64,000 nucleotides of DNA from a virus (IMGVR_UViG_3300020451_002055); one strand, 5' to 3'; positions 27,505-55,289 are shown, numbered from the stretch's first letter. A program made the numbers and translations. Notes: a model not told the origin generated them from the letters alone.

Positions 27505-27844
27505 TCGTGCCTCCTATTGCTCTGATGTTCAGTTGGGAGGGCTGATCGTCGGTGAGGTCGCTTCACCCATCTTAGTCGCTCTCCCTCTTACCCTCCGTTG
27601 CCGGAGGGGGAGGGGCAATCCCCAGGTTGGGGGTTAGGCAGCGTCAGCGATGCTTTCTCCGCCGAGGCTGTTGACGGCGTTCATGGTTTCGATGGCGGTA
27701 TCCGCCGCATCGTTGGGGTCCATGCCTTTATCGACGAGGGCGAGGGTCATGGCGAGGGCTTCGTATCCGTTCATGGCTGTCTCCGTTGCTCTGTAAGGCT
27801 CATTCCTTACATGGATCAGTTGGGATCGGGTATCGTCGGTGAAG

Positions 27845-28138
27845 TTACTCGGGCATCCCCATGAGATCATAAGCCGTCGAAACGGTCATTTCCGGGTTGA
27901 TGGTCTGGACGATGGCGGTCAGCATGGGGCCATCTCCAACGGCGGCATCGAACTGCTCGGGCGTAGCCTTGCCGCTCTTGAGGGCTCGCTGGTAGGTTGC
28001 GTAGAGGTCTTGGGGATCGCTGCTCTGGTCGAATCCGAAGTCGATCCAGGCGGCTCGGTCTGAGGGACCGGGGTTGAGGTCGAGGAACAGGTTGTCAACG
28101 AAACGCTTGGCGACGGGGCTACGGAACTGATGGGTCAT
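27845..28138 (-). CDS. Hypothetical protein
   Basis: AAGGAG RBS, follows dispersed element. Confidence 0.6.
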   Translation of the reverse strand: MTHQFRSPVAKRFVDNLFLDLNPGPSDRAAWIDFGFDQSSDPQDLYATYQRALKSGKATPEQFDAAVGDGPMLTAIVQTINPEMTVSTAYDLMGMPE

Positions 28139-28303
28139 TTGGAATCTCCTTTGCTCTGCGTCTCATTTGAGGTCGGGTAAAATCGGTGAGGTCTGCGTCT
28201 GTTCGGTTTCACTCATCTTATTGTCGGGTTGTTGATTCTTGGTCGCGAAAAGAAAACCCCGCCGGTTGGCGGGGCTCTTGGGTTTCGTGCCTGTTGTCTC
28301 TGG

Positions 28304-28678
28304 TCAGTTGCCGGAGAGTATGGCGATGGCTTCGGCGGGCTCGCTGTCGGAGTAGTAGACATCGAGGTTCTCATGGGGAGCGTAGCCCGCATCGAGGAAC
28401 GCCCGGTAGCGGTCGTTGTCGTAGTCCCAGGCCCTCGTGATGACGGTCTGGACATGCTCGCCGTCGATGAAGATCGTGGATGCCTCGGGGTCGAACTCGC
28501 GGCCCTGCTTGGCGGCGAAGGCGATCATCTCATCGGGCGTGATGGGATGGTTCGCATCGAGGTTGGCGGCGTTGGCTCGGGCTTCGGCGGGCTGCGTGAT
28601 GAGGCTGGCTCCGGCGACGATGGCGAACGCGGCGATGGCGAGGACGATACAGGCTTCGATCAGGGTCTTGATTCGCAT
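28304..28678 (-). CDS. Exported/membrane-anchored protein
   Basis: MRIK + hydrophobic helix + AEA. Confidence 0.6.
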   Translation of the reverse strand: MRIKTLIEACIVLAIAAFAIVAGASLITQPAEARANAANLDANHPITPDEMIAFAAKQGREFDPEASTIFIDGEHVQTVITRAWDYDNDRYRAFLDAGYAPHENLDVYYSDSEPAEAIAILSGN

Positions 28679-28821
28679 GGCTTTGGGCTCCTTTGTTTGT
28701 TTGCCTCTTGACGCTCTACATCGGGAGCTTCCATTCGTCGGTGAGGCTTGAGCCTTTACTGCACTCATCTTACTCGATAACCCTCCCTGGCGGGAGAGCC
28801 TTTACAGAATTTTGGCGTTGC

Positions 28822-29073
28822 TCAATCGAAGTAGCCTGGATCGTCGATGATTTCACCGATGGCTGTATCATGGAGGTAGTCTACGGCCCCCTCCATATCG
28901 TCGTCCTCCCCTGTCCAGCCGAAGTTGCGGGCCATGCCGGGGAAGTCGGTATCTCGCTGTACGAGGATTGTTCGGTCCTCATCAGTTGCATCCCAGTTTC
29001 CGCTCTCATCAACCTGGCAGAGGATGAAGCATCCGGGGGCTCGTCTCTGGTCTTCGTCGATCGTAATTCTCAT
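28822..29073 (-). CDS. Hypothetical protein
   Basis: AAGGAG RBS. Confidence 0.6.
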   Translation of the reverse strand: MRITIDEDQRRAPGCFILCQVDESGNWDATDEDRTILVQRDTDFPGMARNFGWTGEDDDMEGAVDYLHDTAIGEIIDDPGYFD

Positions 29074-29197
29074 GGCTGTCTCCTTTGCTCGGGAGTCAGT
29101 TGATCTCGGAGGTCATCGGTGAAGGTCTGTTTCCACTCATCTTTCTTGGGTCAACCCTCCTCGCCGCGGAAAGCGGCGATTCGGGGAGCAGGGAGGT

Positions 29198-29893
29198 TTA
29201 CAGTTTGCCGGTCGCGGCCGCGAGGGTTCCGTTGCCGCCTGCGCCGTAGACGAGGGTTCCGAGCAGCATTCCAGCCGCTTCTGAGGGTTCGCCGCTGGCT
29301 TGCTTGATGACATCGGACGAATCATCGGTCTTGCTCGGGCGGACGCTGTATCCGTTCCGATGGACGATGACGAGCAGATGATTGATGAGGGTTCCATCCT
29401 CGCCCGCAACTTTACAGGCTTGAACAGTCGTCTCATTGAGGTCGTCGCGGATTTCCGACAGGAAAGCGTTGATGGATTCGTCGTCTCGGGCTTCGAGTCG
29501 CTGCCATGCTCGCCCGTAGTCGGTCGTGGAGTAAACCGTTCCGAATCCGAGGTAGGATTCGTTGAAAGTCGATCCGCGATCGGCGAAGAACAGTTTGATT
29601 GTCAGGGCGTCGATGATTTCGCGCTTCCGCTCGCCGCGCATGAAAGAGGTCATTGTCTCGGGCACTTTGCCGAGTCCTTCGCAGCAGTCGCAATCGACCG
29701 GGTTATCCCAATCGGCGACGGTGCCCGTATAGCAGTCCTTGCAAGAGTTCTTGCCGCCGCGCTTGCCGCGCCGGGTTCCGTTGCAGGTCGGGCAGGCTTT
29801 GCGGGACGGGGCTTTGCCGATGGGCAGGCCGTTGCTTCCGCACATATGGCAGGATTCATCTTCGAGAATGATCTTGTTGCCTTCGAGTCGCAT
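29198..29893 (-). CDS. Zn-finger protein (DnaJ-type CxxCxG repeats)
   Basis: CHMC, CPTCNG, CKDC, CDCCEG. Confidence 0.65.
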   Translation of the reverse strand: MRLEGNKIILEDESCHMCGSNGLPIGKAPSRKACPTCNGTRRGKRGGKNSCKDCYTGTVADWDNPVDCDCCEGLGKVPETMTSFMRGERKREIIDALTIKLFFADRGSTFNESYLGFGTVYSTTDYGRAWQRLEARDDESINAFLSEIRDDLNETTVQACKVAGEDGTLINHLLVIVHRNGYSVRPSKTDDSSDVIKQASGEPSEAAGMLLGTLVYGAGGNGTLAAATGKL

Positions 29894-30268
29894 GGGTGTC
29901 CTCCTTGCTCATTGGACAGTCTACCATGCCTGAGGTTGATTGTCGGTGACGCTTTGGGTTGCGGGCTCCACCCATCTTTCGGGTTCTACCCTCATTCCCG
30001 CGGAATTCGCGGGCGAGGGGAGCGTGGAGGTCAGGGTCGGTCGGCCAGGTCTTTGATGAGGTCTTCCAGCCTCGGGATTACATCGGTCGTTGCGTTGACC
30101 ATGTTGGAGGTCGAGCCGTCGCCGTAGGGCTGGGCCATCTTCCGTTCAATATCCCGCTTCATGTCGCGGACCTTCTCTTCGAGGGAGTTCAACAGTTCGC
30201 CTCGGGCCTTGTCTCGTTCGTGCAGTCGCATGATTGCCTCCTTTGCTGAGAGACAGTCGTGCCCGGGT

Positions 30269-30631
30269 TCAATCGGTGAGAGTCAGAATCCGATCGTAGT
30301 AGAAGTCGCGGGCTTGGGCGAAGTCGTTGGGTTGCAGGCCCTTCGGCCAGAACTCATCGCCAACCTGCGTGGCCTCCAGACTCTCGATGCTCGGCTCGGT
30401 TCCGTCAGGCCCCATGATCGTGCCTTCGATCGGCTTCAGAGTCGCCGTTCCGAATCGCATCTCGATGATCTTCAGGTCGGACGGCGTGGCTGAGACCTGG
30501 ATCTTGGGGTTGGCGTTCCATGCTTCTCGGGGCGTCTTGAATCCGAGTCGAGCATGGATGCCGTATGTCTCGCAGTACGCCTCGAATGTCTCGAACGAAC
30601 CGTATTGACTGCGGATGGTGGTCTTGGTCAT
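30269..30631 (-). CDS. Hypothetical protein
   Basis: AAGGAG RBS. Confidence 0.6.
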   Translation of the reverse strand: MTKTTIRSQYGSFETFEAYCETYGIHARLGFKTPREAWNANPKIQVSATPSDLKIIEMRFGTATLKPIEGTIMGPDGTEPSIESLEATQVGDEFWPKGLQPNDFAQARDFYYDRILTLTD

Positions 30632-31069
30632 TGCATTGCTCCTTTGCTCTGCGGCTCATTGTTTGGCTCGATTCATCGGTGACGATCTCCACCCATCTTA
30701 TGCTATTCTTCCCTCGATGACGAGGGATTCGGTTTAGTTCGTGCATTGTCCGGGTCGGGCGTAGGCGATCATGATTCCATCGGGCGTGGGCTTCTGCTGG
30801 AAGCCGGGCGGCGTGCCCTTGAGCCATGCGACAAACCCGCTGCCATCCAGGTTGTTGGCTGTTCGCAGGTTCATCCAATCTTCGTTGGTTGAAGCGTCCT
30901 CCATTTCGAGAAGGTCGTCGTTCGTGACGCTGACGGCTTGCCCATTCTTCATCTGTTCCAGTTTGGTCATCGTTGCCTCCATTGCATCCGTCATCAGATA
31001 TGGGCGATCATCGGTGAGTCTTTGCACCCATCTTATTCGAGCGGATGCCCCATATCCGGGGCGGGCGTT

Positions 31070-31489
31070 TTACTCCTTGCTTGCCAGGTCGTCGGCGGTG
31101 AACGATGCTGCGTGGTCGGCGAGTTTCTGGGCGTTGTCCCATTGCGTGATTCGCAAGCCGGATTCGGCGGCGACTCTGCGTGCCAGTTGGGGCCAACGAT
31201 CGTCGGTGTGCCCGGTCATAACCTCATGCTTTACGCTGGCAAGCAGGTCGGCGAGTTTCTTCGCGCCGAATCGCTTGGCGGGTTCGAGAAACGCCTTGAC
31301 GCCCGTATAGGCCGTCGTGGTTCGGAACATTCCATCGACTTCGACCGGCGTGATATTGAGCCAGTAGCCTTGGGATTCGGCTCGCGGATCATGGTACGAT
31401 CCGTCATGCTTCGAGTATCGCACCTTGACTTCGATAACCTTGTTGGGTTGATCGGTCGGCAGGTCGAATGATTCGCTTCGCTTGCTCAT
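31070..31489 (-). CDS. Hypothetical protein
   Basis: AAGGAGG RBS before MSKRSES. Confidence 0.6.
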   Translation of the reverse strand: MSKRSESFDLPTDQPNKVIEVKVRYSKHDGSYHDPRAESQGYWLNITPVEVDGMFRTTTAYTGVKAFLEPAKRFGAKKLADLLASVKHEVMTGHTDDRWPQLARRVAAESGLRITQWDNAQKLADHAASFTADDLASKE

Positions 31490-31612
31490 GGTTGTCCTCC
31501 TTTGCTCATTGGACACGCATCATTGGGCCGATTCATTCGTCGGTGAAGTATCGGGTATTCACTCATCTTTCTGCTTCATCCTCGTGCCCGCGGAATTCGC
31601 GGGCCTTGAGGT

Positions 31613-31870
31613 TTAGCCAGTCTTGGCAAGGGGTTCGTGGAAGCCGCCATCCGGGTTCGGGGGCTGATAGCGTTCATAGGGGTTGTCGTGGGCGGCGGTC
31701 AGAATCGCGATCGGACAGAACACCGCTTCTCCGTCTTGGATCGTGACGCCGCAGACAGCGTATTCGATCCGACCCGTATCCGAGTCCTTGACTTCCATGA
31801 GTGCCGCGTCGCCGTTAAGAATCGCCGCCTTCAGCGTTTCAAAGTTTGCTTTCATGCCTTCGGGAATCAT
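31613..31870 (-). CDS. DUF6117-like protein
   Basis: NFETL..A..NGDAALME..D..TG...Y...NPYERY.PP pattern recalled from that family. Confidence 0.5.
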   Translation of the reverse strand: MIPEGMKANFETLKAAILNGDAALMEVKDSDTGRIEYAVCGVTIQDGEAVFCPIAILTAAHDNPYERYQPPNPDGGFHEPLAKTG

Positions 31871-31998
31871 TCGTTGCCTCCTTTGCTTCGACAATCAGCA
31901 GGCGAGCCGAACCATCGGTGAGGGTTGTTCACCCATCTTATTGTACCTACCCTCGTGCCCGCCTCGCGGCGAGCAGTTGGGGAGCAATGGAGGATGGT

Positions 31999-32496
31999 TC
32001 AGTCGGTCAGTTCGCTGGCGAGAATCTCGGGCAGAATCTCGGCAAACTTGACACCCTTGCGGCTGCGGATCTTCAGTCGGCCTTCGCGGGCGGCCCGCTT
32101 CCAGGTCTCGCGTTCCTTGTTGCGTGCCTCGTCTTTGACTTCGCGAAGCGTATGGTAGAGCGTCTGGACGAACCAGTAGCGGGCATCATCGTCGGGGCAT
32201 CGTTCGAGGGCATCGAGGATGCCTTGCCGATGGTTGCGGACGCCGGAGCCGATGGAGTAGGACTCTTGCCCGCCGCCGTGACGAACATGGAGCATCCGCG
32301 AGGTCCGATGGTTCTTCGTGATCGTGAAATGATACGAATGCGAATCGCATTGGCCGCATCGACCCGGAAGGTCGTACATGATCTCGTCATGCTCATCGAG
32401 TTCCGGGGCATGGACGGGATGGGTTGAGGGGCGGTCGTCCGGTTGCCAGCGGTAGCCGGGTTCGCCGTTGACATTGGGGTGTTCGCAGGTACACAT
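31999..32496 (-). CDS. Hypothetical protein
   Basis: 165 aa, Cys/His-rich N-terminal half. Confidence 0.6.
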   Translation of the reverse strand: MCTCEHPNVNGEPGYRWQPDDRPSTHPVHAPELDEHDEIMYDLPGRCGQCDSHSYHFTITKNHRTSRMLHVRHGGGQESYSIGSGVRNHRQGILDALERCPDDDARYWFVQTLYHTLREVKDEARNKERETWKRAAREGRLKIRSRKGVKFAEILPEILASELTD

Positions 32497-32624
32497 TGCT
32501 CTGATTCCTTTCAGCGTTCATTGCGCCGCCCGATCCATCGGTGATGGCTGTTCACCCATCTTACTGTATCGCCCTTCCCAGCCCGCTACGCCGCGGGCTA
32601 GGTCGGGATGAAATACCCCAATCG

Positions 32625-33029
32625 TCAGCAGTATACCTTCCCATCATCGCCGAGGGTCAGGTCGGTGGTTCCGAACCATTCGGAATCCTTCGTGAAGCGT
32701 TCGGTATACGGTCCCCAAAGTTCCTCGCGGGACCAGAATCCTTCGCCGTGCCCGTTGCGCGTCAGGTAGAAGTCGTGGGCCGCCCGATCGGCGATATCCC
32801 ATTCTCCGCGATTGTTGAATTCCTCGCGGGCGAGGATATACGGGCCGTTGCGGTTCCAGAATACCGTAGCGTCGGCGGTCATCTTCGCCAGGGCGTCCGG
32901 GTCGAGGTCATCGGTATCGAGGTAGACATCGTTCCCCTCGTCCCGCTGCGTGATGCCGAAATCCTCAACGGCGGTTCCGAGGTAGGATCGGACGAACGAT
33001 TCAAGGCCTGTGGTCATATTGAGTTTCAT
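32625..33029 (-). CDS. Conserved phage hypothetical protein
   Basis: HDFYLTRNGHGEGFW motif, GGAGG RBS. Confidence 0.6.
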   Translation of the reverse strand: MKLNMTTGLESFVRSYLGTAVEDFGITQRDEGNDVYLDTDDLDPDALAKMTADATVFWNRNGPYILAREEFNNRGEWDIADRAAHDFYLTRNGHGEGFWSREELWGPYTERFTKDSEWFGTTDLTLGDDGKVYC

Positions 33030-33412
33030 TGGGTTGCCTCCGTGGTTGCTTTGCTCAATAGACAGCAGGCCGCCCGATGATTCGGTGTTGGCGGGTCGTA
33101 CAGTGTCCACCCATCTTTCTAGAGGCTTGCCCCTTCCGGGGCTTTGGGTCAGACAATGTATTTCAGGTAATGCTCAACGGCCTTGCTCGGGAATCCGTCG
33201 CGGTCCGCGGCCTTGCGGAATCTTTCTCGATCGTTGCGTGACGCCTGCCAGAGACGCATCAGGGCGAAGGATCGGTTGATACCGATCATATCTTCGAGGG
33301 CGTCGGTGACGGCTTGTTCGTCGATGCCTCCGAACGGGCCTTTGAATTCTTCGGGGATCGTGTCGGCTTCTGTCATGGCTTGTTGCCTCCTTTGCTGAGT
33401 ATCATTGCCGGG

Positions 33413-33649
33413 TCAGGACGATCGGTGAATCCGCGCCTTCTGGTCCCAGAACGGTTGATACATGAACGGAAGGTCAAGCCACATGGCCTGGTCAACTTGG
33501 TTGCGGAAGGGCGTAGCCTTGAGGCCGTATCGCTCGATGATCTCGCGGGCCTTGGCGGTATCCTCCACATACAGGTCGGATTCGTGATGATCCAACTTGC
33601 ATCCCGCTTCTTGCAGGGCTTGGTGAACGGTTGGGGTTTCGTCAGACAT
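33413..33649 (-). CDS. Small phage hypothetical protein
   Basis: DHHESDLYV motif, AAGGAGG RBS. Confidence 0.6.
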   Translation of the reverse strand: MSDETPTVHQALQEAGCKLDHHESDLYVEDTAKAREIIERYGLKATPFRNQVDQAMWLDLPFMYQPFWDQKARIHRSS

Positions 33650-33761
33650 TCGTGCCTCCTTTGCTTCGATAGTCAGTAGGCGGGCGAAGCCATCGGTGAA
33701 GGGTCTAGGATTCGGTCGCACCCATCTTACCTGAGATATGCCCCTTCCGGGGCTGTTCGGG

Positions 33762-33977
33762 TTACATGAGGTTCATGAGTTCGTCTTCGGCTCCGTCGCC
33801 GAGTTCGACCAGGCCCATGAGGATTGCTTCTTCGAGGCCGTAGACGGCGGCTTCTCCGCATTCCTCGCACTCGTACTTCCGGGCGTCCGGCTCGCATCCG
33901 TCTTGGATATGGCCGCACTTCGTGCAGACTCCGTTGCCGTACTCGATATCGCCCGCTTCGACCGTTACCTTTGCCAT
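33762..33977 (-). CDS. Zn-ribbon protein
   Basis: CTKCG...CEECG. Confidence 0.6.
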   Translation of the reverse strand: MAKVTVEAGDIEYGNGVCTKCGHIQDGCEPDARKYECEECGEAAVYGLEEAILMGLVELGDGAEDELMNLM

Positions 33978-35690
33978 TGTTGGCCTCCTTTGCTGAGTAT
34001 CATTGCCAGGTCTAATTCGTCGGTGACGGTTTCGGGCCTCACTCATCTTATCGCTCATTTGACCCTTGCGGGTCGGGTCTTGTTAGCCCTCCATTTCTTC
34101 GGCTTCGCGGAGAATCCGGTTCAGCGTCTCGTTCTGGAAGTTCGGGTCAGAGGCCCGCCGGAGGTCTTGCTGTCGCTTGACTTCGGCGACGATCTGCGGA
34201 AGCAGTTGCTTCATGGTTCGGCCCTTGAACGGGCCTTCGGGTCGGTCGGGGTACTCCTGATTCAGGCGGGCGACGAGGTTGGAGGGCGTTGCCATGCGGG
34301 TCAGCCGCATCCGCCCGCCGCTCTTGACATGCATCTTGGCTGCCTGCCAGGCGGTCAGCAGCAGATAGAAACTCATGCCGCCTTGAGGCATATCGCCTCG
34401 GCCCGTAATCGTCATCCCTCCGCCTTCGTGTTGCTCGATTGGCATTGCGTTGCTCCTTTCGCTCATCATCGGGAGTCGCCGGTCGTCGGTGAAAGTCCCG
34501 GGCACCCATCTTATGCGAGCGACCCTCTTACCGCCAACGGCGGGGAGGGGAGCAATGGAGGTGGTTCAGATGGGGATGTCCTTGTCGGCTTTGTCGTCCC
34601 GCAGTTCGACGCGGACGCCCCGGATGGCTTGGATTCGCTTGGCGGCTCCGGTTGCAGCGGGCTTCGTATGGAAACTGAAACTCATGTCTCGCTCTCCGAG
34701 GCCGTATCCCGCTCCGTCGCTGCCTCGCTTGGCTGCCTTCTCGATCTGCTTGTCCTTCCCATCCGGGTCGTAACCCTCGTAGAAGGCGTTCAGCGTGTAT
34801 CGTGGTTCTTTGTCGCTCATGATCTACGCTACTGCCTCCGCGAGTTCGGTGTTGGGGACCATTTGGAACGGATCGAAGTGCCCGGGGTAGCAGTACCAGG
34901 CGACCGCCCGGTACGTGCCCTTCGCATCATCGCCGTGGACCTGTCGCAGCGTGTCAGCCGACGAGTTCGCAACCATGTCGCGGATGCTCTGCTCGCACTC
35001 CGCTTGGCTCTCGTAGGTGAACCGACCTTGACGGAAAGGCGCTGTCCAGCGGAGTTCGTCAGACGGTCCGTGCATGACGGCCCATCGAATCGGGTAGTTC
35101 TTTGTTTCGTCCTTGCTCATGTCGATCGCTTCTTGGTTCTCTTGTTCGGTGGGAAACTCGCCTACATGATACTTGTAGAGTCCATGAAGAACGGCAAGGC
35201 CCAATCGGTGTAAGGCGTCCGGCTCAGATCCGGTTGCGTCGAGAATCCTTAGCGCTCTGATGGCCGCTTGAACCTTGGACACATCCAAGATCATCCGATC
35301 GCCCATTGAGATTACGCCTTTGGCTCCTCGGGCGGCGTGACAGGTCAGGATGTCATCGAGGTTGAATCCGCTCATGTTATGCTCTTGCTGCGGAACTTGA
35401 TCGGTGAAGGAACGAACGCCAGGGCCATAATCGGGCCTCCGACGATCAGACCTGTGAAGATAATGAACCAATCTTCTCGGTTCGCTGCTGCGAGGATGAA
35501 GTATCCGAGAATCGCTGCTCCGATGAGGAAGCAGAGTGCCCGGCTGACGGTTATCGCGATCCATGCGAGTTTGTTCATGCTTGACCGTTCAGTGTTGAGC
35601 CATTCGGTGCCGAGTCCCACTCATCTTACTACGGCGTTGACCCTTGCGGGTCGTTTGGTGTCAGAGCATGTAACAGTCGCCGCCGTAGTC

Positions 35691-36057
35691 GCCGTAGTCC
35701 TCGTCGGTTGGTCAAGAAAGAAAGAAGTATTCAATGCGAGACCAAAGACAGAAAGTCCAAACCCCTTGAATGGCCAGACTAAGAACAAGACCAAGAAACC
35801 TGTCCTTGACAGCACCCATATCCACCATCATCCAGGGAATTGCATTGAGCCATCCGACAAAAAAAGTCCCACGAAGAAAACAACAACACCGTACGCAATC
35901 GTCAATGTATCTCCGAGATATAAAGCATTGATACCTGACCACCAAATCGTCGTTACTATCCATGCGAAAGTGCCAAATCCAAACTCGAAATCTTTGCTGT
36001 ATTTGCTCATATTTTACATCCTTGTTGGCGTTCTTCGGTGCAGCCGTAGTCCTCGTC
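35691..36057. repeat. 15-bp direct repeat flanking an AT-rich insert
   Basis: GCCGTAGTCCTCGTC at 35691-35705 and 36043-36057. Confidence 0.85.
35828..36010 (-). CDS. Small membrane protein in AT-rich insert
   Basis: Two hydrophobic segments. Confidence 0.5.
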   Translation of the reverse strand: MSKYSKDFEFGFGTFAWIVTTIWWSGINALYLGDTLTIAYGVVVFFVGLFLSDGSMQFPG

Positions 36058-36118
36058 CGTCAACTTTTCGGGAGGACTATTCTTTGAATGGTCGAAATAA
36101 GTCCTATGGAGGTACTTC

Positions 36119-36490
36119 ATGGGACAATACGAACGAACCAAACGCTACAAAGAAAAGAACAGAGAAAAGGTCAACGAGAATCAGCGGAAATACAGGGCTG
36201 AGAATCAGGACAAATACAAAGCATCTAGACAGAAGCGATTACAGAAGATACTTGACTGGTATCGAGACTATAAATCAACTCTGTCTTGCGAGCGATGCGG
36301 AGAATCTCACCCATCTTGCATCCAGTTCCATCATAAAGACCCTTCCGAAAAGGAAGGGCAGATTAGTCGAATGGCTCCGAGGGGAGTATCAATCGAGCGA
36401 ATCAAGGCCGAGATTGATAAATGCGAAGTTCTTTGTGCCAACTGCCATGCCAAAGAGCATTGGGATCAGAAGAATCCTCCATCACCGTAG
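36119..36490 (+). CDS. HNH (homing) endonuclease, inverted relative to neighbours
   Basis: CERCGESHPSCIQFHH...CEVLCANCHAKEH; paralog of 26449-26769. Confidence 0.88.
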   Translation: MGQYERTKRYKEKNREKVNENQRKYRAENQDKYKASRQKRLQKILDWYRDYKSTLSCERCGESHPSCIQFHHKDPSEKEGQISRMAPRGVSIERIKAEIDKCEVLCANCHAKEHWDQKNPPSP

Positions 36491-36738
36491 AGGCCATAAT
36501 CTTCATCCGTTCCGAATCCGGCGGAGCGGAGGACATCCGCATCGGCTTCGACATCATCGCGGAAGTGGTCCTCGGGACCATCGAGGCGGGGATCTTCATC
36601 ATCCGGATACTCCTCCTCGACCTGACGCTGCGTGTCGAAGTCGTCGAAGGGCTGTTCGGGGTTGCCGTAGACGGCGCAGTCATTGCTGTGGGGGCGATGT
36701 TCAGGTCCGTCCTGGGCTCCGCAGTTGCAGTTGTTCAT
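36466..36738 (-). CDS. Small acidic protein ending GTDEDYGLYGDGGFF
   Basis: AAGGAG RBS; 3' end overlaps HNH stop. Confidence 0.6.
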   Translation of the reverse strand: MNNCNCGAQDGPEHRPHSNDCAVYGNPEQPFDDFDTQRQVEEEYPDDEDPRLDGPEDHFRDDVEADADVLRSAGFGTDEDYGLYGDGGFF

Positions 36739-37102
36739 CCGTTGCTCCTTTCGCTGTACTCTGCCTTTGACCAGAGTTCGGTGCCGAAGTATCTGATCTC
36801 CCCATGAGCGATCTTCAATCGACGCTCGAACGGGGCCTCATACGGGTAGTTGCAGACAACGCCCGGGCATGAGTCGAGTTGATCGTACATCTTACGCCGC
36901 ACCTCGTCATCTGTCATGTCCTCATGGGTGACTTGGACAGATTGGATTGGCTCGCCGTTGTAGTAAAGCCATGCCGTGCGTTTCATGCTCTACCCTCGAT
37001 TCTCGGGTCTGTCGGTGAGGACCATCTCCACCCATCTTACTTGAGTCTAACCCTCTTGCCCGCGATTTCTCTTCGCGGGAGAGGGGAGCATTGGAGGACT
37101 GT

Positions 37103-44198: not shown

Positions 44199-45058
44199 GG
44201 TTGTCAGTATAGCCGAAGTCGCATCGGTGAAAGACGACGAGTGCCTGGGGTTTGTTTTTGAGTCAACCTTATCCAGGATTTGCGGTAGTTGACTAGGCTA
44301 CCTTTCAACGCGCCTCGCCGTCAGGGGATGGAGCCGAAGCCCTTATCCCTTTGCCTCTGCATGTTCGTCGGCAGCCAACTCCAACTGGCCCTTGATGAAC
44401 GGGAGCGGAAGTCCGAGCGACAGAGCGTGCTTGACCTCGCTGCAAACGGATGACAGAGCATCGTCTTGCTGGGGAGTTAGATTGCCGGGTTCCATGATGA
44501 CTTCCTCAACTTCGAGCCAGAAAGCCAACGCCAGTCGTTCGGTTCTGTCGGTGATCTCGCTGTAGTCGTCGCCGAGGAAATCGACATTGACGGTATAGCA
44601 GTTGTCCCATTCCTCCAACTCGTCGTGTTCGTTGTCGAGCTTGATCGAGATGACGGTATGCTGCTCGTCGATAAACTCGACCGTGCCCGTCTCTCCGGCT
44701 TCGATGAGGAAATGCGGGAACCCTTCGAGCCTCCCGAGTCGAACCGTTGTTCCGATGGCGGGCAGACTTCTGCGAACGCCCTCGATCGACGGCGGAGCCT
44801 TGGTTTCTCTGTAGTCGTAACCCTCGACCGGAACCTGCTCCGTCCACTCAAAGACATGCTCAACGAGCTTGAGTCGGTTGGAGCGAGCGTATTCCTTTGC
44901 CTCGATGACATTCATCGTGCGGAACTCGCTGGGGTTTCCGTCGCTGTCCTCAAATCCGTAAACGCTGATGTCCATGCCGCTCTGTTCTCGATGTCAGTTG
45001 TCGGTGACGATGCCCACTCATCTTACTCTATACAAGCCCCTTTCGGGGCGAGCAACGA

Positions 45059-45577
45059 TCAGGCGGTTGCGGAGTTGGGCTGGTTGATGCCCATGTCCGC
45101 TCGGAGTCGGATGAGGTCAGCGATATACCGCTCGGCGTACTCCTCGCGGAAGGTGTTGCGGAGGTCGGCTTCATCGTAGGGGAAGTCGCCGTAGCCGAAA
45201 GCGGAGCGAACCTTGCGGACAGCATCTTCCCATTCGAGAGGATGACCGTCTGAGGTGACATGGATTCGCGACCCGAAATGATGCTTGGCGAGCGAGAGGA
45301 CGGCCATAACCGGCTCATCGTAAGGACGCTGGTAGGTCTTGCAGAATGCGTCGTCAGGGTTGGGCGTGAGGACAAAAGTTTCGGCCCCATCATCGCCAAC
45401 GCCGTTGAAGTAGACCATCCCATCATGCAGAATCGGCGTGCGGTCCTGCGGTACGTCCTCGTTGCCGGTCAGCGGAACGCCAAGGACGCCGAGAATCTTC
45501 TGCGCGTCCGTGATGAAGGCGTCCCATTCGTTCTGAGGAATCTGCGAGTTGGTTGTCCAGTAATGCGTATGTCCCAT
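45059..45577 (-). CDS. Conserved phage hypothetical protein (paralog of 62036-62422)
   Basis: MGHTHYW, FNGVG...ETF, FCKT..RPYD. Confidence 0.6.
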   Translation of the reverse strand: MGHTHYWTTNSQIPQNEWDAFITDAQKILGVLGVPLTGNEDVPQDRTPILHDGMVYFNGVGDDGAETFVLTPNPDDAFCKTYQRPYDEPVMAVLSLAKHHFGSRIHVTSDGHPLEWEDAVRKVRSAFGYGDFPYDEADLRNTFREEYAERYIADLIRLRADMGINQPNSATA

Positions 45578-45962
45578 GCGTTACCCCTTGTCCTCGCTGA
45601 GTTCGGTGAGATGAGCGCCGCTAACAAGGCAGGCGAGAATCGCCCCCATGCAGCCCTCTGCCAGGTCTCGGTCGCCTGTTCCCCATTCCTCTGCATCCCA
45701 GTAGGCTTGCTCCGTGCCCGCATAGTCAACAAAGCGAACATAAGAGACGCCCCACTTCTCTGACTCGGAGGTAGGGAAGATGAAGTACTGACCGGCAGGC
45801 GTAACAACGCCCATTTCCTTTGCCGGGTCGATTCCGATTTGCCGCAGAGTTTCGTCGCTAATCAACTTCATACTCTACCTTCGATGCTCATGCTAGTCGG
45901 TGACGATCTCCACCCATCTTTCTATGCCGCGAAGAAAACCGCCCTTGCGGGCGGCTGATGGT

Positions 45963-46166
45963 TCAGGTAACGGTAACGAATCGCATGGTTGTCTGGATCA
46001 GATGATCGTAGTCGCCGCTCATGGCTTCGGCTTGGTAAGCGTCTCGCTCGGCCTTGTCTACGCCCGCCCGTTTCATGGCTTGCGTGACCTTGCCCATGAT
46101 TGAGAAGGCGTTACCGTCCTCTCCGAGCAGTTTGACCTCGATCTCAGGGTGCGCTGGCTGGGGCAT
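45963..46166 (-). CDS. Small conserved phage protein
   Basis: GEDGNAFSIMG...AMSGDYDHL. Confidence 0.6.
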   Translation of the reverse strand: MPQPAHPEIEVKLLGEDGNAFSIMGKVTQAMKRAGVDKAERDAYQAEAMSGDYDHLIQTTMRFVTVT

Positions 46167-46317
46167 TAGGTTCCCTCCTCGATTTCATCCATCGCTGCCA
46201 TGAGATGCGCTTCGGTGATCTCGTAGGCAGTCCGAGTGCCCGAGTCCGTTGCTACCTCCTGATCCGGGTCGATCCCGTTGGCTTTGAGGAATTCGTTGAT
46301 CTGTTCGCGTCCGCTCA

Positions 46318-46716
46318 TTAGAGATGGCCTCCGCTCTTGATCTTGGCGATGACCTCCGACAGCGGCATGGGTTCCCAATGGATGTCCCGCTCGACGCGAG
46401 GAATACCGCCCATCTTGAGACTCTGCAACTCTTGCAGCAGGACCGTACCGCATTCGGCATCGTCGGCGTTGCCAAGGTTGGCAAAGACCCAAAGACGGTT
46501 GGGCGGATCGTTCTCGTTGCGGGGCGGGAATCCGAAGTCGGTTGCCTCGCCATCCTTGCCGCGCGTCTCGCGGTCCCAGTCGTAGAGGTACCAGGTTGCG
46601 GCGGAACCGAGAGCGAAGAACTTCGCGACGACCATGATGTTCTCGGGGGCCATCTGGCTCGTGTCGCCTTGCTTCTCAAGAGCCCGCTCGATTTCCTTGG
46701 TGATGAGTTTCTGCAT
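46318..46716 (-). CDS. DUF2958-like protein
   Basis: VAKFF...ATWYL...ECG.V.L.EL...VERDIHW. Confidence 0.7.
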   Translation of the reverse strand: MQKLITKEIERALEKQGDTSQMAPENIMVVAKFFALGSAATWYLYDWDRETRGKDGEATDFGFPPRNENDPPNRLWVFANLGNADDAECGTVLLQELQSLKMGGIPRVERDIHWEPMPLSEVIAKIKSGGHL

Positions 46717-47074
46717 TTCGTTGCTCCTTTCAAGGATCATCGTGCCCGGGCATTCATCGGTGATTTACCCGCCTTCCTTCTCCGGCTCGCCCATGTCCAA
46801 AGCAGGTCGCCCGCAAATCTCGCAGTCAACCGTAGGCGTATCGGGCGGCGACCACCCTACAGGTCCGGCTCCGCAACCTCCGCGTTCCTCGATGCTCAAC
46901 TTATTGAAGCATTCATTGCAGACTCGACGGCCTGCCTTCGTTGTGACGATTCCTAATGATGCCATGCCTACCTCCTGCCGCCCGAGTTTATCGGTGGCGA
47001 CCTCCACCCATCTTTCTCGCGGTAAAAAGAATGAAGGCGGCAAGGTCTAAGACCAAGCCGCCTCCGAGTTGTGG

Positions 47075-47785
47075 TTAGGCAGTCTGAGCGAGCGAGTCGG
47101 GGACATCAGCCGCCGTGACATTCGGCATGGCGTCCAGGAATCCGGCGATGACCGTTGCAACCTCGGCGGCTTCGGTGAGACCCGGCTGTTCGACCCGGAA
47201 CCGCTGACCGTTGATCCGCAGGCCGCGAACGCTCGACATCTTGAGCGTAGTCGCCGCAATCTCGGTCCCCTTGTCGAGACCCTGATTGGCATACGGCTTG
47301 CTCTTGGGCCAGAACGGCTCCAACTCGGCGAACGGGATCGAGTCGCCCGGGTTGTAGACGGCTCCGCTCTCGGTTTCGATCCGCTCGCGGGCGACATAGG
47401 TAGTCTCGCCCTTGTGCAGCGTCCGCAGACGGATGTACTTCTCGCCGTTGGTCTTGTGTTCGCAGAATGCCGTCAGTCGGCCCTTGTCGTCGGTGATGGC
47501 GTTGTACCATGTATCGCCCTTGCGATGCGCCTCGGCGGGCTTGTCTTGCTTGGCAAGTGCCCGCTCGACATTCCCATCGTAGTCGTAGGCGAGCAGGGCC
47601 GAGATGTTACGGAGACTGAGGACTCGACCGTGGAACGGATTGCTCCGCTTGTCGTCGCCCTTCTTGCCGTTGGTCTTGTTCATTCGGGTCTCGGTCGCCG
47701 TAGTCAGACCGGCAAACTTTGCGCCGAGAATACGGGCGAGGACGAGATCGAGACGGTTCGGATTGATGATTGTTTCGTTGCTCAT
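47075..47785 (-). CDS. Hypothetical protein
   Basis: 237-aa basic ORF after dispersed element. Confidence 0.6.
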   Translation of the reverse strand: MSNETIINPNRLDLVLARILGAKFAGLTTATETRMNKTNGKKGDDKRSNPFHGRVLSLRNISALLAYDYDGNVERALAKQDKPAEAHRKGDTWYNAITDDKGRLTAFCEHKTNGEKYIRLRTLHKGETTYVARERIETESGAVYNPGDSIPFAELEPFWPKSKPYANQGLDKGTEIAATTLKMSSVRGLRINGQRFRVEQPGLTEAAEVATVIAGFLDAMPNVTAADVPDSLAQTA

Positions 47786-50700
47786 GGCATCCATCGGACC
47801 GCGGCAGGATTCGGTGACGATCAGCGAGCATCCGCCTGCACCCATCTTACTCGACCCATGCCCCTTCTGCAAGGGGCGGAGGACCGATCAGGAGCGAGGA
47901 TCGGCGGAATCGTTGGATGCCCGCTCGGCGGAGAGGTTGACCGCCAGAGCGACCGGATCGAAGTCCTTGATCTCCTTGAGTTTGTCGATCAGCAGCAGAA
48001 CGAAAGCCCCATCGCATGTGCCATGGACGATCGCCGCATGGAGCATGGTATCGCCGATGACCGAATAGGCCGGAATCAGAACATCGCAGCCGGAAACAAC
48101 GACCTGCGGAGGCAGTTCGGTTTCGTAGGTGCCAAGCAGGAACTCGTTGGTCGTGCCCGCAACCCTCTTGGCCTGCTCAAGCCATCGAGGATGCGATGAC
48201 AGTTCGAGCGTCAGAAACTCGATGCTGGGCAAGCCGGACGAGGACGATGGTTGAGGCGAGCGCTCCTCAACTTCGGCGAGGACGGAAATCCCTTGAGGAC
48301 AGCGAGCGAGATGTGATCGGATGCCATTGTTCATGTCAGGTCTCTTCGTCGCTGTTGATTTCGGTGATCATGTTCCGCTTCTTCAGCCATTCGAGCAGAG
48401 CGGCCTCGTCAGAAACGATAACCCCTTGCTCGTCTACGAGATTCTCGCAGCAATGGGCGCAGCGGTAGGACTCGACCTCCGCCGTATCGCCGTCATAACT
48501 GACCGCTCCGTAGTCAGCGGCGACCGTTCCTCCAGAAGCCCCGAGGAAATCGACCTCGGAATACTGATGAACATGCGTCAGAACTTCCTCGACCTTGTTG
48601 CCGTCTTCGCCGCAGGCGGGGCACTTGAAATCAACTCGGTATTCTTTGTCGCTCATGGTCTACTCCTCGATCTCGCCGAGTTCGGTGTCGTATGTCATAT
48701 GCTGCGAAACATCGAGCCCTTCGAGCGTAAACGACTTGCAGCCGTCGATGTATGCAACGATCTCATCGGTTCCATGACTCAGCAGATCGCCGAAGTTGGG
48801 CTGACCGCCAGCATACTCGACAACGGGCTGACCGTCAGAGGTCTTGCCCCATGCCGTAATGCCTCGATGCAGCCGCTCAAGGAACTCCGCCTCGTCAGCG
48901 GGAGCGTTGTCCGGCTCAAACTCTGCTCGGACTCGGCAGAAGTTGGTTGGTACAGTGCCGTGTTGCCGGTAAACGATGAGGTCGATGTTCATGTCAACCC
49001 TGTCGCGCAATGCGAAGTTCGGTGCCCTCGTCGGAAAAGACAACGGCCTTAAACGGAGGTGCCTGAATCCGTCGCTTGAGGTCCATCGCGATCAGCAGAT
49101 GAGGATGACCGTTGACTCGCATGAGATAATACTCAGCGTTACCAGGTCCGACCAACTTGTAGCCGAACTTGGCAGCGAGCGCTTGGTCATCTCCATCTTC
49201 ATCGAGCTTGATCGCGCGAAAAAGTTGGTAGCCAGAAACAAATACGCCGCATGGAACTTCGCTCATCCCGACTGACTCGCTGCGTATTCTCGGTTCTCTT
49301 CGTCCGCCTTGTTGGTCAGCCATTCCGCCAGATGCTCGACGGTGCCCGAGTCGTCGTGTTCCTCGATGTAGTCGAGGAGCAGACGAGCCATCGAGTCTCG
49401 GTCCCAACCTTGGGACTCTTGGACTGCTTGGACTCGATCGCGAGCGTCTTGTCGTTCCTTGTTCAAGGACATGATGTTCCTTGCATCCTTTCCGGTTCGG
49501 TGTCAGGCGGTTTCGTTCAGTGCGTTGCGGGCGATGTCCCTCGCCTGAACGACCATAAGCCCTCGTTGGGCTGCGTCATTGGGGCCGGTCTTGTCAGTGA
49601 TCCGATCGTCAGGCAGATTGCCTGCGACCTTCGTGATCGCCGTCAGAGCCGCTCTCATCTTCTCGATCTTCTCCGCTTCCGTCATTCGGTGTCTCCTTCT
49701 TGAGAATCGCCAGGATCTCGTTGTGGACGTATCCGGGCGTCAGAAAAGGCCCGCTGTCTCGGAGGTCTTTCCCTTGGAACTCGCCCGTCACCCAATCCTT
49801 GAGGTAGGCGTAAATCTCTCCGGCCTTCTGTTCTGCGAGTTCGTCAGGAATCTTCATGGTCATCCGATCTGCTTGTCGTCCTTGTATACCGACCAGTTGC
49901 TCGGCGTATCGTCGGTGGAATGGTACTCCATCTCGCCGACATCTTCGCCTCCGCCATCGGCGACGATCTCCCTCGCCTGGCGTGCCTGCTCTGATGCAGG
50001 TAGGTCGCCATCGACGAAGACCTCGACGGGCTGAGTGTGGCGTTCAAGACGATGGACGATGATTCTTTGCTGTGCCATGCGGCTCCTTGGGTTGCATAAT
50101 CTTTCGGTGCAGCAACATCATGGCGGAAACGTCTGCTGACTGAAGCATGATCTCCTGCGCAGTCTCCTGAACCAGTGCGACATGCGGGCCGGTAGCGGTC
50201 ATGTAGTCGATGCGCGTCCGGCGACCGTAGTTGCGTTCGCGGTTCGGAGGCAGTTCCTCGATCGCCATGACGAGAGCAGGAGAAACCATGACAACAGGAG
50301 TATCCTTATCGCCGTCGATAGGAGTGTTCTCTGTCCACTTGTTGAGCTTCATGAGGTTCAGCATATCAGTATCCGTATACTTCCTTGAGCCTTTCGGTGG
50401 CAGCCTCTTCGCCCATGTTCTGAACGAGTTGCTCGATCTGCGAATGGATGCCCTCGTTGTTGTAGCCGCTCGCTGTCTGACTGAACTGGTCGTGGATGTC
50501 CTCATCCAACTCGGAACCGTCAGCATCGGCATACTTCCGCTGCAATGCGGCGATGGTTTCGTTGACAGGCTTCGGCTCGATGCTCTCGCGCCATTCATCA
50601 AAGGTCATACCCTTGGTGCCCGTCGAGTCGCCTTCCTCATCGAACGCATCGAGGATGATGCCCTCATGCGTGACGACGACTTGGAGGCCATCGACATTGA

Positions 50701-51057
50701 GGCGAACTTCGTCTGCTTCGACTGTCTTTCCGTCGATTACGAACTGCATGTCGCCTCCTTACGCGAACTGGTTTGCGAGAGCGTCCAGAGCCGTCTGAAC
50801 TGCAACGGCTCCCTCTTGAGTGCTGAGGTCGAACCCTTGGCAGGCCATCGCCAGCAGCGTGGCTTCGAGCCCTTCGATGGCGTTGTTGTAGGCGATCGTA
50901 TCTCCGTCCCTCGGAAGGTCTTCCTTGAGATTGGATTCGATTGTGCCTCCGCCGGGGTTGAACTCATCGACCATGATCCGGATCCAGTCGCCCTTGTCAG
51001 GATGACCGTACTCGTAGGTCGTTGTCTTGTCTGTCTCGGTCTTCGTGATCATGGCTA

Positions 51058-51708
51058 TCAGGCGGTCGCCGTCTGATTCGGTGTTAGGGCTGCGAAGAAC
51101 TGGTCCGCTCGAACAAGCAGCATGTCCGTTGTCTCGTAGTGGTCCGGTTCCTCGTCGCTCATGGCGATGGACGATGTGCCGTAGATCGAGGAGCCGATCA
51201 GCAAATCCTCATCGACATCGGGAGCGCCGATACAGATGGGGGCGACGAAGAACTCGCCTCGCTTGACGAACAGCCCGATGGGAACCGTATCGCCAGGAAT
51301 CTGTCCCCAGTCGATCTCGTTCGCCAACTTCGTGATCATGGGGACGAGCCGTTCCTTCGCCATCTCCATCTTGACCTTGCCGCCCGAATCTTGGAACTCG
51401 GGCGTGATGTCCTCATAGCCGAGGCGGATCAGGAGTTTGACGAATGCGTTGGGAGTCCAACCCTTCGTATCGGACATGGCCTGAACCATGTCGTTGCAGG
51501 CGAGCAACGCTTGCGTGCTGTCATCGAAGGCAGCGATGCGAGCGGTCGGACCGCTGAGGTCATGGAACTCGACGCAGAACTCGCAGAGGAACTCATCGGA
51601 GTCATCGTAGAGTTGGATCATGATGTCGTCGAAGTAGTCCCGGTTGTTGAGGGCCGACTTGCCGTACCATGCTCTGCTTGATTGGATGAACTTGATCTTC
51701 ATGCTCAA
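51058..51708 (-). CDS. Hypothetical protein
   Basis: 216 aa, overlaps upstream stop. Confidence 0.6.
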   Translation of the reverse strand: MSMKIKFIQSSRAWYGKSALNNRDYFDDIMIQLYDDSDEFLCEFCVEFHDLSGPTARIAAFDDSTQALLACNDMVQAMSDTKGWTPNAFVKLLIRLGYEDITPEFQDSGGKVKMEMAKERLVPMITKLANEIDWGQIPGDTVPIGLFVKRGEFFVAPICIGAPDVDEDLLIGSSIYGTSSIAMSDEEPDHYETTDMLLVRADQFFAALTPNQTATA

Positions 51709-52499
51709 CCCTTGTCGTCGTCAGAGTTCGGTGAGTCCTCGGGAACGCCAGCGGCCTCCAGCAGTTCGACATCATCCTTGGCAATCCAGGGAACAAGGTC
51801 TTGGAGTTCCGCCAGTTCCTCCATGCTGATGCGTTCGGCTCTCAACTCGCCTCGAAGATACTCCAAACGGGCAAGGTTCTTCTCGTCCGTATCGTCCTTG
51901 CGATGATACCATGTTCGCCGCTCGTCGTGCCCGAGAATGTAATGATCTCCCTTGTAGACATACTCGGCCTCATGTCCCTCGTTGTCCTCGCCGCAGGGCC
52001 ATTCGCCGATGCACTCGCCCAAGTCGAGGATGTCATCTCGATCAGGAAGTCGCTCAGAGTCAAGCGGATCAGGGCGACCGAGTACGTCAACAAAGAAGTT
52101 GCGGATGGCTGTCGCTGCATGGCTCGTGTCCTCTCGATCCTCGTCCGCCCGGATGAGATCGGCAACGGAATCGAGGAGATCGTCCATCCGGCTCCGAGAA
52201 CCAGCAGGGCAGCCGCAGTTGACGCAGTTGCCTCCCGGATCAGTCGTGCAGGGCTCGCAAACGCAAGGGGCCTCTCGAAGATGAGGAGCGGCATGTTCCC
52301 ACCATGCGTCCATCTCGGACTCATGGAACTCAAACTCATCGGCCTGAGTCGGGATCTCGTCGGCATGTTCAGTCGTACCCGGAAGGTAGAAGAACACCTC
52401 TCGATTACCATTGCGTGCCTCAATGAGAAGCAGATCGACCGTCAGTTCGCGGTCATGGATGTTGCAGATGTCGAACGATGGTAGGAATGCTGTTTTCAT
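51705..52499 (-). CDS. Hypothetical acidic protein with Cys cluster
   Basis: CVCEPC...CVNCGC. Confidence 0.6.
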   Translation of the reverse strand: MKTAFLPSFDICNIHDRELTVDLLLIEARNGNREVFFYLPGTTEHADEIPTQADEFEFHESEMDAWWEHAAPHLREAPCVCEPCTTDPGGNCVNCGCPAGSRSRMDDLLDSVADLIRADEDREDTSHAATAIRNFFVDVLGRPDPLDSERLPDRDDILDLGECIGEWPCGEDNEGHEAEYVYKGDHYILGHDERRTWYHRKDDTDEKNLARLEYLRGELRAERISMEELAELQDLVPWIAKDDVELLEAAGVPEDSPNSDDDKG

Positions 52500-53085
52500 G
52501 CCCTACAGGAGTCATGTCATGCGTTCGGTGCGATCGTAGATGTCCTTGGCGGTAGCGACAGCCCTCTCTCCGACGAACTCGGGCCGACCGCCGTTTTCAG
52601 GGCTGCTCTGCATGTGAGCGGCGATGGTCGTCGCCATCTCCCGAATGATCGCCTTCTTCTGCTGCTCCGGAGTCTGAACCACTGCACTCATCTTTCGTCT
52701 CCTTCGCGGGAATGGAGAAGATGTTCCGCCATGCCTCGCGATGCTCTTGTTCCAGGTATTGTTCGAGATCGCTGCAACGCTGGCGAACAGCCTCGTATGC
52801 CTCGCCGCAGCCCTTGGCCTTGATGATGCAAACAGCCTGAGCGAAGTCAGACATGGGCATACCGAAACCCGCAAGTTCAACCATGAACCCGAGCAGTTCG
52901 ATGTCCCGACCAAGCCGGGTTCCATCCAGTTTGAGGAAATGAGCCGACTCCATCTCGGGATCCTGCGTCTCATCGCCTTCAGCATAGACAAGACGAACCC
53001 GTCCGCCTGAGTTTGACTCAAGCGTTCGGCAAATGTCAAGCAGTTCTGCTACGAACTCATCGCGCCGTTCAGCCATGCGTGGATT

Positions 53086-53652
53086 TTACTCGGGCTTGGC
53101 CGCACCTGTATGCCGAACAAGATACTGATCCCATTCGTTTCGACTGATCGACTTGAATCCCAGGTCCGAAAAGATGCCATTGACCGCATCGGTCATCATG
53201 TACTGGGGCTCCGTATCTCCGATGCCTGTATTTGCATGATGATCGTCGAAGAACGACATGAGATGGGCAAGAAGCGTCATCGACTCCTTGAAGGAAAGGC
53301 TTTGAATCGCATCCCTGTAGCGAGCGAGAGCCCGAGCGCAAATCTCATCGCCAGTCCAACCCTTGCCCCATGTGCCCGGCGACTTGCAAGTCGAAGGAAC
53401 ATCGCGGTAGCAATCGAACTCGATGTCGGGAAACAGTTCTTGAGGGCTCTTAGCGTCTGACCAATGCGGACCCGTAAGCATCTGGTCGAGCAGAGGGCTC
53501 GCAACAGGCCGCTCCTTCAGAATATTCTCGGCCTCAGCGATCAACTCAGAGATGCGGGCCTCCTCTTCAGGCGTAGAAGCCTTGACGTTCAGCGCTCCGG
53601 CTTCAGCGGCAAGGATGAGGGCTCGATACTTGGTGATCCTGCTGATGTTCAT
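53086..53652 (-). CDS. Hypothetical protein
   Basis: 188 aa after dispersed element. Confidence 0.6.
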   Translation of the reverse strand: MNISRITKYRALILAAEAGALNVKASTPEEEARISELIAEAENILKERPVASPLLDQMLTGPHWSDAKSPQELFPDIEFDCYRDVPSTCKSPGTWGKGWTGDEICARALARYRDAIQSLSFKESMTLLAHLMSFFDDHHANTGIGDTEPQYMMTDAVNGIFSDLGFKSISRNEWDQYLVRHTGAAKPE

Positions 53653-54095
53653 GGTCTTCAGTCCTGCCCGTTTCTATTCGGTGTTGGGTTCACTCATCTT
53701 TCCCGCGAAGAAAGCCCTCGGATGAGGGCGTGTAGGATCAAGCTGCTTGCTGGTTCTTCTTGGCCGTTGAAATCAGCCGGACTGCTGTAGCAAGCGTGGC
53801 AGCGAGCATGAGCCAGCCGGGGAAGACGACCGCAGGGATGACCTCTCCGCCGAGAACCTGAGAGAACGGAGCAGCGAGCGAATGGCCTACGAGGGACAAC
53901 GACTCGCTGATGAAACCGTCGAGTCCGACGTTCTCGATGAACAGCCCAACAGCAAAGGCAATCGCCGTGAATACCGGCAAGCAGAACGCGCATGTCAGTC
54001 CGGCATACAGGGCTCGGAAGCGATGACGCTCGAACTTGAAAAAGATGTAGACGGCGGCGGCAACGGTAAGAAGACTTGCAAGCATGATGGCCTCC

Positions 54096-55197: not shown

Positions 55198-55289
55198 GCT
55201 CTCTCATTGTAGTCGAAGAACGGAACGGTCAGATGAAAAACGAAGCGCCGCCTCTTGACGACGCCTCGCTGGAGGAGGGGATCCGTGGG

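Follow-up and report, generated by a model that had tools for sequence, protein, structure and literature searches.

The question raised by this locus is which signals govern a long array of small minus-strand genes in an uncultivated huge marine phage. We analysed a window of 64,000 nt, part of TARA_SAMEA2623826_METAG-scaffold_1 (486,833 bp), in which two short words recur between genes: AAGATGRGTG, here P1, and CACCGA, here P2, in which positions are counted from the first C of the hexamer. Both words have a regular anatomy and spacing, are conserved in relatives, and are confined to one gene block. The reading that we favour, with some reserve, is that they are two separate phage-specific promoter classes, P1 at the starts of transcription units and P2 ahead of individual genes, the latter partly giving leaderless transcripts; the region they mark, which runs from 27 kb and reaches 63.5 kb or beyond, is probably an early-gene block serving host takeover or anti-defence. 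As huge uncultivated phages cannot yet be grown, their expression programme must be read from sequence. The window also encodes a type I-C cas operon, a tyrosyl-tRNA synthetase (TyrRS) and a tRNA cluster, and showed no resemblance to any isolated phage in DNA and protein comparisons. The array genes are small and their function is unassigned by matches: the window's array proteins gave no informative domain or family match, and a 231-aa array protein has no relative in IMG/VR, nor among isolated phages at the DNA or protein level. A literature search for the two words returned primer coincidences only.

P2 tops the enrichment ranking of the 2446 hexamers tested (84 observed vs. 15-22 expected). 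The gene strand carries 86 copies and the opposite strand one, a difference to be read with the caution given below, and all except two are located within 27.2-63.5 kb; apart from these two, which fall in 1-27000, the 0-27 kb block is devoid of both signals. Sixty-three copies are linked to gene starts and divide into two classes. In class B (33 copies) the hexamer is followed by an ATG at about +31 (+31 in 27 cases, +30 in four, +32 in three), and the pattern CACCGA-N25-ATG occurs 27 times where 0.72 are expected. The hexamer at -31 is all-or-none, with 27 exact copies vs. four that carry one mismatch. In class A (30 copies) it is followed by a leader with a AAAGGAGG-type ribosome-binding site (RBS) and then by the ATG, which lies anywhere from +43 to +71. 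Common to both classes are landmarks downstream of the hexamer: S19, A21, G24, W25, Y30 (pyrimidine) and R31 (purine). For class B, G24 was present in 34/38 sites and C at -1 (C30) in 32/38; for class A, 65 sites taken together from three genomes (45-57 % GC) gave counts of 62 for G24, 58 for Y30 and 62 for R31. G24, Y30 and R31 occur together in 51 of the 63 gene-linked copies, compared to 6.8 % of the background, and they are found also at the P2 copies that precede two non-coding regions (61097 and 57165). The landmarks track the hexamer while the start codon wanders, and are therefore part of P2 rather than of a signal for translation; transcription start points usually carry a pyrimidine-purine pair. 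Two other candidate signals were rejected: T23 G24 as an extended -10, since the next hexamer is not -10-like, and the enriched word GGGCAC, which reflects a coding effect (Gly-Thr or Gly-His).

From this anatomy we infer that P2 acts on DNA as a compact promoter ahead of most genes, in which CACCGA would occupy -31 to -26, followed by a weak proximal box (A at -10, T/G at -8/-7, A/T at -6) and a pyrimidine-purine start point. For about half of the P2 genes the predicted start point is the A of the ATG, which would yield a leaderless mRNA, and for the remaining ones it would open a leader of 14-40 nt with a strong RBS. The median RBS duplex energy of class B genes is -3.9 kcal/mol, where class A genes reach -9.5 and random sites -2.9, and about half of the class B genes have no usable RBS, including unit-first genes that lack an upstream open reading frame (ORF) for coupling. 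Many class B hexamers sit in the last codons of the upstream gene, with all three frames used. Many unrelated class B genes begin with ATGAGCAA (Met-Ser-Lys/Asn; e.g., at 43752, 43275, 37971 and 48656), and so the conserved junction reaches into the first three codons.

P1 is present in 33 exact copies in the window, 31 on the minus strand and two on the plus strand (26936 and 63018), so that the motif array reported in a preliminary description of this DNA is real; with at most one mismatch there are 39 matches vs. 8.5 expected from shuffles. The minus-strand copies (n=31) are found only at unit starts, after GC-rich hairpins whose stems mostly end 9-14 nt (about 10 nt) ahead of the motif. 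The 50 nt upstream of these 31 copies have a mean folding energy of -17.0 kcal/mol, vs. -11.0 +/- 4.3 for random 50-mers of the array, in line with the hairpin that the preliminary description had placed there. Its statement that TTGACA is missing at -35 holds as well: position profiles revealed no TTGACA-type -35 upstream of P1, and a scan of 27000-46900 for the sigma-70 promoter consensus, with TTGACA-like -35 and TATAAT-like -10 boxes spaced 16-18 nt, gave four sites vs. 6.4 expected, which is no enrichment of the housekeeping type. Pooling 95 copies gave the consensus (A)(G/A)(T/A)AAGAT(G/A)(G/A)GTG(R)(A), with W at -1 together with a purine at +10 in 78/95 copies. The motif comprises a TAAGAT core that is -10-like, a G-rich discriminator, and a purine 6-7 nt downstream. 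P1, written (T/A)AAGATGRGTG(R)A, looks like a -10 box followed by a G-rich discriminator, lacks a -35 box, and would restart transcription after the hairpin that closes the previous unit, probably in a different temporal class or by a different polymerase form than P2. An opposite-strand sigma-32-like -10 box (CCCATCT) was rejected, having no -35 partner and with the genes lying on the other strand, and so was a mini-ORF starting at the ATG inside P1, the peptides ranging from 3 to 256 residues with no common stop.

Some P1 copies stand without P2. Two solitary copies, at 42222 and 58859, are located 17-18 nt ahead of an RBS and a start codon: in the first (41900-42222, minus strand), P1 at 42213-42222 is followed by AAGGAG, 7 nt, and a GTG at 42194, with no CACCGA, and the second precedes GGAGGA and an ATG. 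At 36041-36317 (minus strand), P1 (36308-36317) is followed by about 270 nt without an ORF or P2, a candidate small non-coding transcript for which no Rfam family match was obtained.

The preliminary description had regarded the two words as halves of one bipartite element. CACCGA is located at most 30 nt from P1 in 23 copies, and at 34, 46 and 57 nt in three more. The gap classes described for the 23 paired copies were reproduced (6-14 nt in 17, 18-22 nt in six), as was an extra degenerate word, ACCGAA, in two long-gap copies (33728 and 28219). A single element is nevertheless not borne out, as CACCGA is far commoner than P1 and is tied to start codons instead. The gap spans 6-57 nt in the window and 1-58 nt across all lineages, and the suggested bimodality of one helical turn disappears once relatives are pooled, which gives gaps of 1, 2, 5-14, 17-34, 46, 57 and 58 nt with no periodicity. 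The inverted repeat RGTG/CACC did not behave as a paired unit, showing no compensatory change, and a hairpin of RNA or DNA that pairs the two was rejected, since there is no compensation when R = A or in lineages that have CACTGA. A sigma-28-like reading (TAAG, about 15 nt, CCGA), also rejected, suits gaps of 7-9 nt only and fails at 2 nt or above 17 nt. The solitary copies and the variable distance to P2 suggest that P1 is a second promoter class rather than a partner site of P2, and P2, with its own downstream landmarks at fixed spacing, is not an accessory site of P1. Thus, the earlier proposal of a phage promoter fits as to type, whereas its assignment of the second half as an activator or antiterminator site of the first does not.

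To what extent are the signals conserved? Matches in IMG/VR motif scans and most of those in a metagenome scan were single chance hits, the true relatives being only L271, L292, L296, L337 and L346; L241, L242, L244, L245, L246 and L248 were reached via homologues of the 231-aa array protein. Both signals are kept in diverged contigs of 41-61 % GC, with variants that are lineage-specific. L241 and L242 (61 % and 58 % identity; GC 52 % and 45 %) have P1 and P2 as in the window, and L271 and others (GC 43 %) were added by the metagenome scan. L244 and L245 (45 % identity; GC 61 %) carry AAGATAGGTG and CACTGA, and L246 (40 % identity; GC 41 %) has five P1 copies along with 64 copies of CACTGA on the gene strand and none on the opposite one. 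Neither signal was found in L248 (33 % identity). In the CACTGA lineages the pyrimidine-purine pair of class A and the ATG of class B shift together to +29/+30. In L365, which extends L271, 12 P1 and 22 P2 copies fill a 10-kb array; the adjoining 10 kb of tail-fibre-like genes, probably structural, contains one CACCGA and no forward P1, and a reversed P1 at the boundary (10171) mirrors the layout of the window at 26936. Arrays of the relatives encode ArdA, DUF932, DUF6011, DUF2958 and DUF3085. ArdA and other families among these are known from plasmid leading regions, which makes the two words markers for a pool of candidate anti-defence genes as well.

A palindrome is associated with both words. 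On the minus strand at 43752-43783, a P2 contains the near-palindrome TTTCCGCGAGGAAA in its spacer, operator-like, between the hexamer and the predicted start point; L271 and L292 carry the perfect palindrome TTCCGCGGAA at the same position, and near-perfect versions hold this fixed place in a number of units, both in the window and in its relatives. At other sites the palindrome is located just upstream or just downstream of P1. These look like classical operator positions, making TTCCGCGGAA, beside P1 or inside the P2 spacer, a candidate repressor site. Half of this palindrome, the exact 9-mer TTTCGCGGA, occurs in seven copies where fewer than one is expected (minus strand at 14241-14249, 17179-17187 and 25025-25033; others at 800, 17457, 5378 on the plus strand and 59885 on the plus strand). 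Three of the copies are found in the 0-27 kb block that lacks P1 and P2, each 10-60 nt ahead of a gene start; the 9-mer may be an operator or a third promoter class.

Several points weigh against two promoter classes. Genes for a sigma factor or an RNA polymerase were not seen in the window, P2 has a weak proximal box that does not fit any known -10 consensus, and a density of one promoter per about 430 bp is unusually high. The single opposite-strand CACCGA is only suggestive, with higher-order models expecting just 3.5-8 copies, and the depletion of the hexamer's complement is weaker than the raw counts imply. Within upstream genes the hexamer frame is biased 13:4:3, partly through shared ancestry of junction modules. 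About half of the class B genes do carry RBS-like sequence, and most operon-internal ones have an upstream stop 4-8 nt away, so that translational coupling could replace leaderless initiation there. Finally, first genes without an RBS would not be translatable from a P1 transcript.

Among the alternatives, the one that survives best, though we consider it unlikely, takes P1 as the site of a phage DNA-binding protein, which might be an activator, might enhance P2 in the manner of an upstream element, or might act as a roadblock aiding termination at hairpins without T tracts. T tracts are indeed rare in the hairpins that precede P1, most having none, reversed copies of P1 exist, and one lineage holds P1 exactly 2 nt from the hexamer (14/19 copies), at -42 to -33, an activator position; yet over the lineages the distance to P2 shows no helical phasing, P1 without P2 stands directly before an RBS and start codon as well as before ORF-free stretches, and the variants of the two words do not co-vary, with L246 pairing AAGATGGGTG with CACTGA. 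Slightly less probable still is that P1 is the sole promoter and that P2 acts in RNA, as the site of a phage endoribonuclease that would trim polycistronic transcripts to a 5' end at +31, or as a docking site for a phage translation factor. A ruler of +/-1 nt across 25 nt of single-stranded RNA would be hard to build, and the palindrome at its fixed place in the P2 spacer points to recognition of double-stranded DNA, whereas the restriction of P2 to the sense strand, its position inside operons with no room for a terminator, the C/A junction at +30/+31, which could be a cleavage site, and the heavy investment of the phage in translation genes (TyrRS and the tRNA cluster) would agree with a role in RNA. 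P2 also precedes non-coding RNAs, and hence is not translation-specific, and it is lacking from the structural genes of L365. The second reading of the preliminary description, recombination sites shuffling one-gene cassettes, here taken as dedicated and site-specific (integron-like attC or similar), is very improbable and largely refuted. Gene content is mosaic among relatives, which differ by single-gene indels and by one gene that is transposed, yet neither core word coincides with a breakpoint, no integrase or recombinase domain was found among the about 40 window proteins scanned, the inverted repeat is of 4 bp only and without covariation, and such sites have no need of the hexamer's fixed distance to the start codon.

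How, then, are genes gained and lost? The window shares nine, six, seven and three genes with L242, L241, L244 and L246, respectively, mostly collinear and one transposed. L244 and L245, whose aligned blocks are 94-99.6 % identical, differ by eight indels or replacements. Two of the single-gene indels have direct repeats at their ends, of 14 bp and 20 bp, which are a shared start-codon module and a shared RBS module, and a ATGAGCAA-type gene start stretch acted here as a recombination repeat; a further difference, a replacement, begins about 22 nt downstream of the hexamer, another is the insertion of a LAGLIDADG endonuclease gene, and the remaining ones lie elsewhere. The breakpoint comparison suggested in the preliminary description thus gave none at the core words and two of the eight inside start-codon or RBS modules. 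The inserted LAGLIDADG-type homing endonuclease gene is in the L244 array (4007-4831, minus strand) and is absent from its 97 %-identical sister L245. Indels that break inside repeated start modules indicate that the repeats serve as passive recombination substrates, and gene gain and loss, as judged from these sequences, looks like passive shuffling of the kind described for the PeSL cassettes of T4-type phages rather than site-specific recombination. In PeSL (promoter-early stem-loop) cassettes, small modules of a stem-loop and an early promoter recur through hyperplastic regions rich in small genes of unassigned function; by recombination between these modules single genes are gained, lost or exchanged, the indels and replacements between related phages end in the modules, and mini-circles form (Arbiol et al. 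2010, PMC2839356). The array described here is similar in that a hairpin and a promoter-like module are repeated between small genes without assigned function. It is different in that PeSL promoters are strong and of the sigma-70 type, whereas here there are two different signals with no -35/-10 consensus, and P2 sits before almost every gene, even inside coding sequence.

Comparison with other promoter systems places P1 and P2 further. In the jumbo phage AR9, 159 start sites were mapped for 134 genes, some genes having two promoter classes in tandem; its AT-rich motifs are read by phage multisubunit polymerases, and leaders are 26-491 nt, none leaderless (PMC5312081). As in AR9, short phage-specific consensus words stand here at a fixed distance from a predicted purine start point, but a distal hexamer at about -30 dominates in place of AT-rich motifs. 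Promoters of extracytoplasmic function (ECF, group 4) sigma factors have two rigidly spaced boxes, an AAC-core -35 and a CGT-core -10. P2 shares with them the rigid two-box design, in which the boxes are separated by about 17 nt and the upstream one is short and highly specific; unlike in ECF promoters, the upstream box has no AAC core and the proximal box is not CGT-like and stands about 2 nt closer to the start. A T7/SP6-type polymerase promoter is one contiguous word of about 20 bp, from -17 to +3. The L244 composite (P1, 2 nt, CACTGA) resembles the SP6 promoter, but in other lineages the two words are 1-58 nt apart and P2 mostly occurs alone. Integron cassettes are promoterless, and their attC sites have paired R and L core sites, used by an integrase together with attI; here, in contrast, each unit carries promoter-like signals and the 4-bp inverted repeat lacks covariation. 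Promoters of leaderless genes in Actinobacteria and Deinococcus have a TANNNT -10 box, and those of archaea a TATA box (PMC4633059, PMC4007540). P2 resembles these in standing at a fixed distance from an ATG that often has no RBS and is predicted to be the first transcript base, and differs in that its fixed element is a GC-rich hexamer at -31 to -26.

The per-gene and probably leaderless design of P2 is thus probably an unusual feature among phage-specific promoter cassettes and, if true, an unusual transcription architecture for a bacterial virus. One gene, one promoter and largely leaderless transcripts are otherwise typical of archaea and giant eukaryotic viruses. More tentatively, P2 might represent a previously undescribed mode of phage transcription, in which about two-thirds of the genes in an early block of more than 37 kb would own a -30-type hexamer promoter, half of them starting on the start codon, read by a candidate phage factor that drifts between lineages (CACCGA vs. 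CACTGA). The two words divide a genome of half a megabase into a probable early block and a remainder, predict to the nucleotide where transcripts of about 90 genes and several non-coding RNAs would start, and, through the covariation of hexamer variants across lineages, give a handle for finding the sigma factor or polymerase responsible.

The block consists of two sub-arrays and an extension, all on the minus strand. Sub-array A (27000-34512) contains about 20 small genes, mostly in single-gene units with the order hairpin, P1, P2, a short leader with a strong AAAGGAGG-type RBS, and ATG, the latter 46-65 nt after CACCGA. Its P1 copies begin at 27573, 28219, 28771, 29143, 29978, 30699, 31034, 31569, 31939, 32562, 33117, 33728, 34049 and 34512. 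An example of class A is found at 33647-33728, with P1 at 33719-33728, P2 at 33693-33698, a predicted start point at 33667, the ATG at 33649, and the landmarks T23 G24 A25 and Y30 R31. Sub-array B (34566-53700) is organized in tighter operons, with P1 at unit starts only and P2 ahead of nearly every gene; the ATG follows the C of CACCGA at a distance of exactly 31 nt, and the hexamer often falls within the last codons of the upstream gene. P1 copies here begin at 35627, 36317, 37038, 38253, 39074, 40486, 41253, 42222, 45024, 45920, 47014, 47848 and 53700; one more minus-strand copy, at 52694, shares bases with a start codon and could be due to chance. A unit-first gene of class B is found at 45869-45920 (P1 45911-45920, P2 45897-45902, ATG 45871 at +31, ORF 45581-45871). 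An operon-internal P2 lies at 37969-38002, where the hexamer (37997-38002) is in the last nine codons of ORF 37975-38202, read there in the frame xxC-ACC-GAx, and the upstream stop is 6 nt before the next ATG (37971).

The P2 domain extends over 53738-63542, with CACCGA up to 63542, spanning non-coding RNA regions and the tRNA cluster, and P1 copies begin at 57470, 58859 and 61141 on the minus strand. At 61066-61141 P1 (61132-61141), a 34-nt gap and P2 (61092-61097) precede an ORF-poor structured-RNA region, and this P2 has the full set of landmarks (C19, A21, T23, G24, T25, T30, G31). The P2 at 57134-57165, before a non-coding RNA region, has G24, Y30 and R31. Of the two plus-strand P1 copies, one (63018-63027) lies within the 14-nt spacer between two minus-strand tRNA-Leu genes. 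The other (26936-26945) closes the array distally; a hairpin of its own lies upstream, with a T run and a CGCG context, and downstream there is a hairpin and no P2. In three genomes a P1 beside a C-rich element of the CCCCTACCCCTACC type, with TTATA following, marks this distal end (window 26880-26945; L365 10160-10230; L241 11001-11090), the P1 being reversed in the window and L365, and tandem and forward in L241.

A few minor observations concern the rest of the window. The palindromic hexamers AGATCT, CAGCTG and ACATGT have no copies in 26900-64000 vs. 7-11 expected, which looks like restriction-site avoidance in the early block. At 63459-63567 (minus strand), between two tRNA-Leu genes, there is a 109-nt weak match to a tRNA model (35.9 bits) that was not called by ARAGORN and may be an oversized tRNA-like RNA. 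At the other end of the window, 1331-3456 (minus strand) encodes an AAA_15/AbiEii-like ATPase beside an RlaP protein (RNA-repair, polymerase-beta family), and this pair is adjoined by an odd tRNA-like call at 3474-3552.

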